DNA of 5,200 nt from a virus (IMGVR_UViG_3300000357_000284:1-5200), one strand, 5' to 3'; shown: positions 1 through 3,942, counted from the first letter of the stretch. Made by a program: numbers and translations. Notes: a model not told the origin generated them from the sequence alone.

Positions 1-1248
1 ATGGCACTGAATATTCCATTCAGAAATGCGTACTATCGTTTTGCATCCAGTTACTCATTTCTCTTTTTTATTTCCTGGTCGCTGTGGTGGTCGTTATACG
101 CTATTTGGCTGAAAGGACATCTAGGATTAACAGGGACGGAATTAGGTACACTTTATTCGGTCAACCAGTTTACCAGCATTCTATTTATGATGTTCTACGG
201 CATCGTTCAGGATAAACTCGGTCTGAAGAAACCGCTCATCTGGTGTATGAGTTTCATTCTGGTCTTGACCGGACCGTTTATGATTTACGTTTATGAACCG
301 TTACTGCAAAGCAATTTTTCTGTAGGTCTAATTCTGGGGGCGCTCTTTTTTGGCCTGGGGTATCTGGCGGGATGCGGTTTGCTTGACAGCTTCACCGAAA
401 AAATGGCGCGAAATTTTCATTTCGAATATGGAACAGCGCGCGCCTGGGGATCTTTTGGCTATGCTATTGGCGCGTTCTTTGCCGGTATATTTTTTAGTAT
501 CAGTCCCCATATCAACTTCTGGTTGGTCTCGCTATTTGGCGCTGTATTTATGATGATCAACATGCGTTTTAAAGATAAGGATCACCAGTGCATAGCGGCG
601 GATGCGGGAGGGGTAAAAAAAGAGGATTTTATCGCAGTTTTCAAGGATCGAAACTTCTGGGTTTTCGTCATATTTATTGTGGGGACGTGGTCTTTCTATA
701 ACATTTTTGATCAACAACTCTTTCCTGTCTTTTATGCAGGTTTATTCGAATCACACGATGTAGGAACGCGCCTGTATGGTTATCTCAACTCATTCCAGGT
801 GGTACTCGAAGCGCTGTGCATGGCGATTATTCCTTTCTTTGTGAATCGGGTAGGGCCAAAAAATGCATTACTTATCGGTGTTGTGATTATGGCGTTGCGT
901 ATCCTTTCTTGCGCGCTGTTCGTTAACCCCTGGATTATTTCATTAGTGAAGCTGTTACATGCCATTGAGGTTCCACTTTGTGTCATATCCGTCTTCAAAT
1001 ACAGCGTGGCAAACTTTGATAAGCGCCTGTCGTCGACGATCTTTCTGATTGGTTTTCAAATTGCCAGTTCGCTTGGGATTGTGCTGCTTTCAACGCCGAC
1101 TGGGATACTCTTTGACCACGCAGGCTACCAGACAGTTTTCTTCGCAATTTCGGGTATTGTCTGCCTGATGTTGCTATTTGGCATTTTCTTCCTGAGTAAA
1201 AAACGCGAGCAAATAGTTATGGAAACGCCTGTACCTTCAGCAATATAG
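1..1248 (+). CDS. cscB: Sucrose:H+ symporter (MFS, LacY-type oligosaccharide/H+ symporter family), complete, 415 aa
   Basis: Full ORF from ATG 1-3 to TAG 1246-1248. Translation is strongly hydrophobic with about 12 membrane segments and LacY-family-like stretches (EYGTARAWGSFGY, FDQQLFPVF, GPKNALL, VFKY). N-terminus MALNIPFRNAYYRF and length match my recollection of E. coli CscB. The four ORFs in the track inside this span are out-of-frame or antisense artefacts. Confidence 0.9.
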   Translation: MALNIPFRNAYYRFASSYSFLFFISWSLWWSLYAIWLKGHLGLTGTELGTLYSVNQFTSILFMMFYGIVQDKLGLKKPLIWCMSFILVLTGPFMIYVYEPLLQSNFSVGLILGALFFGLGYLAGCGLLDSFTEKMARNFHFEYGTARAWGSFGYAIGAFFAGIFFSISPHINFWLVSLFGAVFMMINMRFKDKDHQCIAADAGGVKKEDFIAVFKDRNFWVFVIFIVGTWSFYNIFDQQLFPVFYAGLFESHDVGTRLYGYLNSFQVVLEALCMAIIPFFVNRVGPKNALLIGVVIMALRILSCALFVNPWIISLVKLLHAIEVPLCVISVFKYSVANFDKRLSSTIFLIGFQIASSLGIVLLSTPTGILFDHAGYQTVFFAISGIVCLMLLFGIFFLSKKREQIVMETPVPSAI

Positions 1249-1689: not shown

Positions 1690-1704
1690 TGGTGTCCCCT
1701 GCAG
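1690..1704 (-). other. Prophage attachment-site core: 15-nt exact copy of the 3' end of tRNA-Arg argW (CTGCAGGGGACACCA on the minus strand), attR-type junction
   Basis: Minus-strand 1704-1690 reads CTGCAGGGGACACCA, identical to the acceptor 3' half plus CCA of argW as I remember it. The sequence diverges from the tRNA immediately upstream, so this is a partial copy and not a tRNA gene. An excisionase gene lies 74 bp away. Confidence 0.6.
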
Positions 1705-1761: not shown

Positions 1762-1783
1762 TATTTTACCCGCTATTTTACCC
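1762..1783. repeat. Tandem direct repeat TATTTTACCC x2 (1762-1771 and 1774-1783) overlapping the torI stop codon; candidate arm-type or excisionase binding sites
   Basis: Two exact 10-bp copies separated by 2 nt, 58-79 bp from the att core. A 7-bp inverted repeat ACATCTA/TAGATGT (1705-1711 and 1750-1756) lies in the same arm. Confidence 0.35.
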
Positions 1784-1978
1784 ATTGGCGCGGCTTAAGA
1801 GCTTATTTTTGAATTCACAATGGTCACGATATAACCATCTTGCTCGCCCGTGGATAACTTTGGCTTTTGGCAGGTCGCCGGACTTAATCCGGTCATAGAT
1901 GAAGGTTTTACCGAAGCCAGTATCGGCCATGATGAATTTCAAATCAACCAGTGAATCAGGTTGTAGTTCGTGTTGCAT
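1778..1978 (-). CDS. torI: AlpA/Xis-family winged-helix excisionase (recombination directionality factor), 66 aa; matches my recollection of TorI of the KplE1/CPS-53 prophage
   Basis: ATG 1978-1976 preceded by GGAG (1991-1988, 9-nt spacer); TAA at 1780-1778. The 66-aa product contains the AlpA-like core ADTGFGKTFIYDRIKSGDLPKAKVIHGRARWLYRD. It sits next to the argW-derived att core with no integrase nearby, which is the known KplE1 layout (int at attL, RDF at attR). Confidence 0.7.
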   Translation of the reverse strand: MQHELQPDSLVDLKFIMADTGFGKTFIYDRIKSGDLPKAKVIHGRARWLYRDHCEFKNKLLSRANG

Positions 1979-1983
1979 GAGTG

Positions 1984-2202
1984 CTATCTCCGAATAGGGA
2001 ATCGAACCTGCAAATCAGGCAATAAAAAACCGCCATCAGGCGGCTTGGTGTTTTTCAGTTCTTCAATTCGAATATTGGTTACGTCTGCATGTGCTATCTG
2101 CGCCCACAGCATCCAGTGGTCATAGCAGTCATTGATGTTCTCTGCTTCGATAACTCTGTTGAATGGCTCTCCATTCCATTCACCTGTAACTCGGAAGTGC
2201 AT
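1984..2202 (-). CDS. Doubtful 72-aa ORF (MHFRVTGEWNGEPFNRVIEAENINDCYDHW...), possibly a gene remnant; reads through the terminator hairpin and the tRNA-like block
   Basis: ATG 2202-2200 with GGAG at 2213-2210 (7-nt spacer), but the start lies inside the U-tail of an upstream terminator and the last ~25 codons are encoded by the 2030-2043 hairpin and the argW T-arm-like block. TAG at 1986-1984. Confidence 0.3.
   Translation of the reverse strand: MHFRVTGEWNGEPFNRVIEAENINDCYDHWMLWAQIAHADVTNIRIEELKNTKPPDGGFLLPDLQVRFPIRR
1998..2013 (-). other. 16-nt block identical to the argW T-arm region (TTGCAGGTTCGATTCC on the minus strand), separated from the 15-nt core by 293 bp that contain torI
   Basis: Minus-strand 2013-1998 reads TTGCAGGTTCGATTCC. 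In argW this sequence is directly followed by TGCAGGGGACACCA, but here it is followed by CTATTCGG, so no cloverleaf can form. It overlaps the torI RBS region. Confidence 0.4.
2024..2055 (-). terminator. Intrinsic terminator: GC hairpin CCGCC-ATCA-GGCGG (2030-2043) followed on the minus strand by TTTTTTATT; weaker in the + direction
   Basis: 5-bp GC stem with 4-nt loop; A-run 2024-2029 gives a U6 tract right after the stem on the minus transcript. On the + strand the T-run (2051-2055) is 7 nt from the stem. Confidence 0.55.
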
Positions 2203-2213
2203 TTATCATCTCC

Positions 2214-2240
2214 ATAAAACAAAACTCGCCGTAGCGAGTT
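2214..2240 (-). terminator. Intrinsic terminator: 7-bp stem AACTCGC / GCGAGTT (2223-2229 and 2234-2240) with 4-nt loop, followed on the minus strand by TTTTGTTTTAT
   Basis: Perfect 7-bp inverted repeat with tetraloop; T-rich tail on the minus strand (plus 2212-2222); about 70 nt downstream of the stop of the 2310-2570 gene. Confidence 0.5.
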
Positions 2241-2309
2241 CAGATAAAAGAAATCCCCGCGAGTGCGAGGATTGTTATTCACCTTTGACGGCAAGTTGCA
2301 GGTTAGCCA

Positions 2310-3678: not shown

Positions 3679-3942
3679 TTATCCTGCTGTGCTTTCAACT
3701 GATGAGGGGAATAAAATCTTTTCATCAAATCCGGCATTCATATCATGGACAGCAACACACCAATCCATCGACGAACGATTATCAAGAGCCTCCATGATTT
3801 CATCCATGCGGCGCAGGTCATACAGGTAAATGTTTTTATCGCCAATGGTGTAAAAACCAATTTTTTTCGGTGATGGGCAGCGATCAAGAACTTCCTGTAA
3901 TTCGTTCAACCATGCCTGTTCTTTTTTTGTCAAAGTTGCCAT
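3679..3942 (-). CDS. Hypothetical small protein, 87 aa (MATLTKKEQAWLNELQEVLDRCPSPKKIGFYTIGDKNIYLYDLRRMDEIMEALDNRSSMDWCVAVHDMNAGFDEKILFPSSVESTAG)
   Basis: ATG 3942-3940 is 1 nt after the TGA (3946-3944) of the upstream gene and is preceded by AAGGAAAG. TAA at 3681-3679. The track ORF starts 30 codons further upstream without an RBS. Confidence 0.55.
   Translation of the reverse strand: MATLTKKEQAWLNELQEVLDRCPSPKKIGFYTIGDKNIYLYDLRRMDEIMEALDNRSSMDWCVAVHDMNAGFDEKILFPSSVESTAG

Follow-up and report, generated by a model that had tools for sequence, protein, structure and literature searches.

A 72-codon reading frame running through a terminator upstream of torI, read as a rare one-base-deletion allele of the lambda orf55 gene

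How should an open reading frame (ORF) be understood when it runs through a terminator hairpin and ends a few nucleotides before the start of the next gene? The question is raised by a stretch of viral DNA of 5,200 nucleotides (IMGVR_UViG_3300000357_000284:1-5200, here called the window), whose minus strand does hold, as the initial annotation had reported, an ORF of 72 codons that passes through such a hairpin and its U-tract, and whose last third is encoded by this hairpin and by a block resembling the T-arm of a tRNA. That annotation, which was made from the sequence alone, proposed a decayed gene, a terminator-regulated leader governing read-through into torI, or a small RNA locus. The comparisons described below point to the first of these. 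Judged by its alignment with related copies, the ORF is a frameshifted allele of the lambda orf55 / phrog_676 gene, a rare form that has lost one base, and it is very probable that the arrangement as a whole is a known and already described lambdoid architecture that carries a rare heritable one-base deletion. The term "decayed gene" was therefore essentially right, the allele differing by a 1-nt deletion and being labelled "frameshifted" by PGAP, but the decay is minimal and leaves the core residues 1-50 untouched.

The prophage in the window is of the HK620/Sf6 lambdoid type and is integrated at argW, beside the csc sucrose genes. Every gene in the prophage part of the window lies on the minus strand, where ea-region genes (Ead/Ea22, DUF551 and others) are followed by the orf55-family ORF, torI and the attR core (Table 1). 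The locus is the standard end of the lambdoid early-left (exo-xis / ea) region, and the orf55-family ORF takes the position of the last gene of that region, directly upstream of the excisionase gene. Read along the minus strand, the order comprises an upstream ea gene, two tandem intrinsic terminators, a Shine-Dalgarno sequence, the orf55-family gene, the terminator t'I, a pI-like block, torI and attR. The torI module is common to KplE1, HK620, Sf6 and CUS-3 (PMC3509656, PMC2951348).

Table 1. Features of the window around the orf55-family ORF, by position.
Feature	Position	Strand	Remarks
cscB, sucrose permease gene	1-1248	+	left part of the window, adjoining the right end of the prophage
attR core, CTGCAGGGGACACCA	1690-1704	-	copy of the argW 3' end; named pawZ in K-12
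torI, excisionase gene	1778-1978	-	identical to HK620 hkaC and Sf6 gene 18 (PMC3509656)
ORF, frameshifted lambda orf55 / phrog_676 allele	1984-2202	-	72 codons + TAG
torI Shine-Dalgarno sequence, GGAG	1991-1988	-	precedes the TAG (1986-1984) of the extended ORF
argW T-arm copy, TTGCAGGTTCGATTCC ("tRNA-like block" of the initial annotation)	1998-2013	-	exact, 16/16 nt, against K-12 argW
TTGC-N5-TTGC block (TTGC-CTGAT-TTGC)	2010-2022	-	just after the U-tract; placed where lambda pI has its cII site
t'I-equivalent hairpin	2027-2046	-	inside the ORF, codons 53-59; -13.0 kcal/mol, z -2.9
1-nt deletion site	2052-2053	-	G absent: CTGAAA[G]AACACC; alignment column 264
ORF Shine-Dalgarno sequence, GGAG	2210-2213	-	7 nt before the ATG (2202-2200); read from the sequence
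Proximal hairpin, UUUUGUUUU tail to ~2216	2222-2241	-	-11.9 kcal/mol, z -3.4
Distal hairpin, U-rich tail	2252-2273	-	9 pairs, 5 G-C; -13.1 kcal/mol, z -4.5

The first 50 codons of the ORF are homologous to a family of 55-aa proteins, to which residues 1-50 are 87-100% identical, and codons 51-72 are an out-of-frame read-through of the hairpin and of the region upstream of torI. The ORF matches the phrog_676 profile with an E value of 2e-37, residues 1-52 falling on profile positions 1-52 of 55, and no family matching it was found in Pfam. When the window is aligned with HK140, Sf6 and HK620, it reads CTGAAA-AACACC where the others read CTGAAAGAACACC, one G being absent five codons ahead of the ancestral stop. 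The stop of the normal frame is the TGA at 2038-2036, which is located in the loop of the hairpin (CCGCC-TGAT-GGCGG). Because one G has been deleted, the frame of the window misses this loop TGA and runs on across the hairpin and the DNA ahead of torI as far as a TAG that lies between the Shine-Dalgarno sequence and the ATG of torI, 5 nt before the latter. The normal arrangement is illustrated by HK140, in which a 55-aa "lambdap35-like" gene is annotated with its 3' end overlapping an annotated rho-independent terminator; its product, MHFRVTGEWNGEPFNRVIEAENINDCYDHWMIWAQIAHADVTNIRIEELKEHQAA followed by the stop, has the C-terminus EELKEHQAA. The window ORF departs from the hallmark of the family (55 aa, an end in EELKEHQAA and a stop in the terminator loop) in being 72 aa long through the 1-nt deletion. 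An intact conserved homologue with the same C-terminus as the 72-aa product had been named as something that would refute the initial reading, and on this point the comparison favours that reading: the conserved homologues stop 17 residues short of this C-terminus, within the hairpin loop. The K-12 gene ypdJ was considered as a homologue of the ORF and discarded; it is unrelated and overlaps the 3' end of yfdT, and K-12 holds no copy of orf55.

Codons 1-50 of orf55 are a real gene under strong purifying selection, evolving as a folded protein. Over the first 150 nt, 38 distinct alleles were compared; their variable sites are distributed 3/1/15 by codon position, and the variant codons are 18 synonymous to 5 nonsynonymous in the ORF frame versus 2:21 in each control frame. 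A beta-beta-alpha-beta core, with strands at residues 2-9, 12-19 and 41-49 and a helix at 23-36, is predicted by AlphaFold2 from 27 sequences, with pLDDT values of ~88-90 for residues 1-50 and below 50 for the tail, residues 53-72; the extra tail is predicted to be disordered. Since the deletion falls beyond the last strand, the predicted fold of orf55 is left intact, and the model of the window ORF agrees with the compact beta-beta-alpha-beta fold that has been published for lambda Orf55 (PMC8614690). The best PDB match returned by Foldseek, with a probability of 0.98, 23% identity and E 0.05, is to T7 Gp2 in its complex with RNA polymerase (4lk0_M), no PDB structure matching at E 0.001. A likeness of lambda Orf55 to T7 Gp2 has been published as a speculative suggestion (PMC8614690), and in both cases it is a weak top structural match. 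As for the tail, it bears no sign of being a selected peptide, since the same DNA is conserved in Sf6, HK620 and K-12, where it is unread by any ORF.

The window as a whole contains 14 terminator-like sites versus 6.2 +/- 2.5 in shuffled sequences. The upstream hairpin with a U-rich tail that the initial annotation had described does exist, but it is not alone, a second one standing in tandem with it. The distal hairpin is the putative terminator of the ea-region gene cassette that comes before; it is also found in lambda, between ea8.5 and orf55, and other phages have different GC-rich hairpins in its place, each going with the gene upstream of it. The proximal hairpin, the second putative terminator of the tandem pair, marks the 5' edge of the orf55 cassette. 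In ~78 of the 84 copies compared (the reference phages and 80 IMG/VR loci) it accompanies the ORF, and its variants are mostly structure-preserving, as when an A to G change gives a U.G wobble. The start codon of the ORF does not lie in the U-tail, as had been supposed: the U-run ends at ~2216 and is followed by the GGAG (2213-2210) and then by the ATG (2202-2200), so that only an out-of-frame ATG at 2215-2213 touches the tail. The Shine-Dalgarno sequence itself is also kept in lambda, in HK140 and in the IMG/VR loci. Nor is the ORF bracketed by two terminators, given that the pair stands upstream of it and the other terminator lies inside it.

This internal hairpin is formed by AAGCCGCC-UGAU-GGCGGUUU and then UUUAUU, with an 8-bp stem and a 4-nt loop, then UUUUUUAUU. 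It is nearly invariant, being exact in 73 of the 84 copies, and the segment that holds it is 96% identical to lambda 29098-29178. The P22 record L06296.1 labels the hairpin t'I and describes it as "identical to 29106..29165 in bacteriophage lambda", the HK140 record annotates the same hairpin as a rho-independent terminator, and the copy of the lambda record J02459 that was examined carries no terminator features. From its sequence and from the annotations of the depositors, the hairpin appears to be an intrinsic terminator equivalent to lambda t'I, the name and the function resting on the GenBank note in L06296.1, since a search for papers on lambda terminators gave nothing on t'I. On the plus strand, too, the hairpin scores as terminator-like, and there it could stop transcription entering the prophage from cscB; the plus-strand U-tract is poor.

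Several known systems share parts of this arrangement. The same layout is found in lambda, in which orf55 (lambdap35, NP_597778), t'I, pI and xis are found at 29,078-29,370 with the order and spacing of the window: tandem hairpins after ea8.5, a Shine-Dalgarno sequence, an orf55 of 55 codons, the TGA in the hairpin loop, the U-tract, TTGCGTGTAATTGC and the ATG of xis. Lambda differs in having 55 codons against the 72 that result from the deleted G, and in having xis with TTGC-N6-TTGC rather than torI with the N5 repeat. HK620 and Sf6, on the other hand, have torI (hkaC and gene 18, respectively) and the 45 nt upstream of it essentially identical to the window, but they carry hkaD or gene 19 in the slot of orf55, of which the last ~45 nt are kept together with the hairpin as non-coding DNA; the window has the full orf55 gene, in its frameshifted form. 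The K-12 element KplE1 / CPS-53 (yfdT - torI) shares torI, the upstream TTGC / argW-like block and the attR core, but is without orf55, and its hairpin is decayed. P22 shares the hairpin block of ~60 nt, annotated there as a terminator in both directions, but the block follows eaG and precedes eaC, and the antisense promoter paI lies within eaC, which is absent from the window. A diverged Klebsiella phage, whose homologue has 78% aa identity, has the same TGA in the loop, the U-tract, TTGC-N6-TTGC, Exc and Int.

The junction between the two halves of the locus is sharp. BLAST searches of E. coli genomes and phages place a mosaic breakpoint at ~2010-2028, K-12 and HK620 having only the torI side in common with the window, and HK022, HK140, lambda, the Stx phages and CUS-3 only the ORF side. 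The U-tract of the t'I hairpin (2029-2024) is the mosaic junction: the homology of K-12 to the window begins only there, and at least five unrelated modules start at this tract, namely lambda xis, torI and three others. In yfdT-type contexts (the IMG/VR loci L014, L024, L078 and L087) a different hairpin stands directly upstream of the torI block, consisting of CCGCATCAATGCGG followed by TTTTTTA, at -8.3 kcal/mol, and the K-12 hairpin (L004/L010) is a mutated version of it, at -2.9 kcal/mol. Since different hairpins recur before torI whatever the upstream gene, the succession of terminator, TTGC block and torI is a conserved architecture. The proposal that excisionase expression is insulated from the upstream operon is supported by this comparison, through the recurrence of a terminator before torI and through the t'I label. 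In K-12, the silencing of torI reportedly depends on Rho, as attributed to Menouni et al. in 2013, and the decay of the K-12 hairpin may be a reason for this dependence. Inhibition of Rho raises the copy number of the CPS-53 region (PMC11551753).

Between the hairpin and torI lies the TTGC-N5-TTGC block. HK620 features 1664-1702 and 1689-1701 correspond, with the window coordinate equal to the HK620 coordinate + 321, to window positions 1985-2023, annotated as the "phage integration" promoter pI, and 2010-2022, annotated as its cII-binding site. Sf6 also annotates pI here, inside the boundary sequence bsq2 (window-equivalent 1781-2021), and in lambda TTGCGTGTAATTGC, the cII site of pI, is found at the same offset from the hairpin. 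The identification of 2010-2022 as a pI / cII site is a prediction made by the HK620 and Sf6 authors; the spacer in the window is N5, against the N6 of the canonical TTGC-N6-TTGC that is seen in lambda pI, in HK620 pRE and in the Klebsiella site. K-12 and eight other loci read TTAC at the first half-site, and the cII gene of the prophage is located beyond the window.

Overlapping this block is the sequence that had been described as tRNA-like. The description has a basis, for the sequence is an exact 16-nt copy of the argW T-arm, which explains the impression, but it is not a tRNA: ARAGORN reports 0 genes, and the 3' half of the T-stem is not complementary. In the tRNA, the stretch that is copied runs exactly up to the start of the att core, and by an arithmetic estimate the chance of a 16-mer match to argW in the window is ~1e-4. 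The T-arm copy and the attR core are contiguous in argW and have the same orientation in the phage, where they are ~300 nt apart and are separated by torI and its flanks. This pair could derive from a longer ancestral attP identity block that was split by the torI module, or could reflect an extra integrase core-type site at the torI promoter.

The deletion allele is rare. A length of 55 aa is found in 82 of the 84 orf55 copies, and 72 aa only in the window and in E. coli HKUOPY1. Among protein clusters, those of 55 aa are large (1,501, 204, 48 and 34 members, one of them seen on 346 contigs) and those of 72 aa are tiny. Of 2,485 matching complete E. coli records, 3 contain exactly the 80 nt of segment 2016-2095, as do none of 168 phage records, the others spanning 81 nt; the deletion allele thus amounts to ~0.1% of the E. 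coli records that carry the segment. In HKUOPY1 and in the ST131 strain 4993 it is labelled by PGAP as "hypothetical protein; frameshifted" and treated as a pseudogene. Sequencing error can be dismissed as its source, since three complete genomes, as well as contigs from many independent samples, carry the exact protein. In an assembly collection this 72-aa product has index entries in 26 blocks, from which 23 contigs, coming from several independent samples, were read; one contig has the attP order (torI, integrase, tailspike), and several differ in their flanking mosaics. The allele represents one haplotype; over 540 nt, most copies show 0-1 mismatches, and they are set in differing flanks. 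A second, independent frameshift, located two codons later in the copy P0001, leads to the same tail, a recurrence that fits either recurrent decay or recurrent selection. Since the deletion allele persists across assemblies, it could be neutral or even useful.

In the related locus from strain 4993 (L100, NZ_CP103557.1 1584262-1587341) and in one other locus (L097), an integrase gene, in place of host DNA, directly follows torI. This attP-like order suggests tandem or circular phage copies, or some other integration arrangement, with the same frameshift allele.

A mechanism can be outlined for both alleles. In the repressed prophage, the hairpins would stop stray leftward transcription that is not antiterminated ahead of the excisionase gene, and the prophage would thus be kept stable; after induction, N-modified transcripts from pL would read through t'I. 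Both N and nutL are encoded by HK620. With its TGA located in the loop, the normal allele would have the stop included in terminated transcripts. In the deletion allele, ribosomes would miss this TGA, read the hairpin and the pI block, and stop at the TAG between the Shine-Dalgarno sequence and the ATG of torI. The earlier claim of a missing stop codon in an mRNA that ends at the hairpin accordingly applies to the deletion allele only. Such transcripts, ending at t'I before any in-frame stop, would be non-stop mRNAs, the product of which would presumably be tagged by tmRNA and degraded, while transcripts that read through would give the 72-aa protein with its disordered tail. The frameshift itself would be neutral or mildly deleterious, a mutation rather than a feature by design.

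A frameshift at this place might also have re-wired the junction. Translation of the extended ORF would then melt t'I and deliver ribosomes to the start of torI, so that the output of excisionase would be coupled to the translation of orf55; a constitutive insulator would be turned into a translation-dependent gate, with more excision from read-through or leaky transcripts and an altered rate of spontaneous excision. The coupling itself is suggested by geometry only, namely by a hairpin that coincides with codons 53-59 and by a TAG that lies just past the torI GGAG and 5 nt before the ATG; the persistence of the allele, seen in many samples and also in what looks like a complete phage genome, would be in keeping with it, as would the fact that the same tail arose twice. 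It is nevertheless improbable. The allele is rare both in E. coli records and among phages, ribosomes on the normal allele already reach the loop, so that the difference in hairpin melting may be small, and the tail is not seen as a selected peptide, the same DNA being conserved in phages and in K-12 as non-ORF sequence.

The leader-peptide reading, in which translation of the ORF would govern the formation of the 2027-2046 terminator and thereby the read-through into torI, is very unlikely indeed. Such an attenuator would look like this, with a short ORF ending in a terminator just ahead of a regulated gene, but constrained folding yields no competing antiterminator: opening the 3' side of the stem costs 9-13 kcal/mol, and the freed 5' side finds no partner, or only a distant one of 4 bp. 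Moreover, the body of the ORF evolves as a folded protein under strong purifying selection, and the same gene and hairpin stand upstream of at least five unrelated downstream modules.

Least probable of all is a small RNA locus, whether as a minus-strand RNA of ~150-250 nt between the terminators or as a plus-strand antisense RNA ending at the hairpin in the manner of P22 aI: in the curated P22 record the C1-activated antisense aI RNA is indeed annotated as terminating at the same hairpin, read the other way, the hairpin does score on the plus strand, and a weak STnc130-like match is present on that strand at 1928-2055, but this match reaches 25.2 bits against a gathering score of 55 and is driven by a generic hairpin, the plus-strand tail CUUGGUGUUUUU is a poor U-tract, the paI promoter of P22 lies in eaC, and no promoter-like site is found nearby on either strand, the only one in the window being at 3719-3746. 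The search of Rfam gave nothing at the gathering score, the matches to STnc130, Leu_leader and rsmX being at chance level and coming from generic hairpins. The possibility that the ORF has its own promoter or is a "moron" was likewise set aside, no sigma-70-like site being found near the ORF on either strand.

Read as a frameshifted orf55 allele, an odd-looking ORF is explained by a single missing base in a known lambdoid gene, and the gain is mainly one of annotation hygiene. A caution for ORF scans follows, in that an ORF running through a strong, conserved terminator is most likely to be a frameshift or to have lost its stop. The succession of a stop in a terminator loop, a promoter block and an excisionase gene is a conserved and heavily recombined lambdoid junction, and mosaic joints are formed by the terminators that border cassettes, in line with what the HK620 and Sf6 authors put forward under the name of "boundary sequences". 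If the rare allele does alter excisionase expression, it would provide a small natural experiment on translation versus intrinsic termination and on prophage stability.

Two further observations concern the ends of the region. The stretch of ~440 nt from the stop of cscB to the attR core (1250-1690) contains short ORFs only, and in a related locus (L096) a DUF4942 fragment is called in the DNA that matches it; the stretch is probably a remnant of an earlier island at the argW/csc junction. On the minus strand at 2275-2310, just before the distal hairpin, a mini-ORF of 11 codons (MANLQLAVKGE and a stop) has its start in a TAATG that overlaps the stop codon of the 86/104-aa gene upstream. Sf6 keeps the mini-ORF (MANLQLDVKGE), and so, with a GTG start, does HK140; it is probably the retained 3' end of another gene, acting as a boundary sequence.
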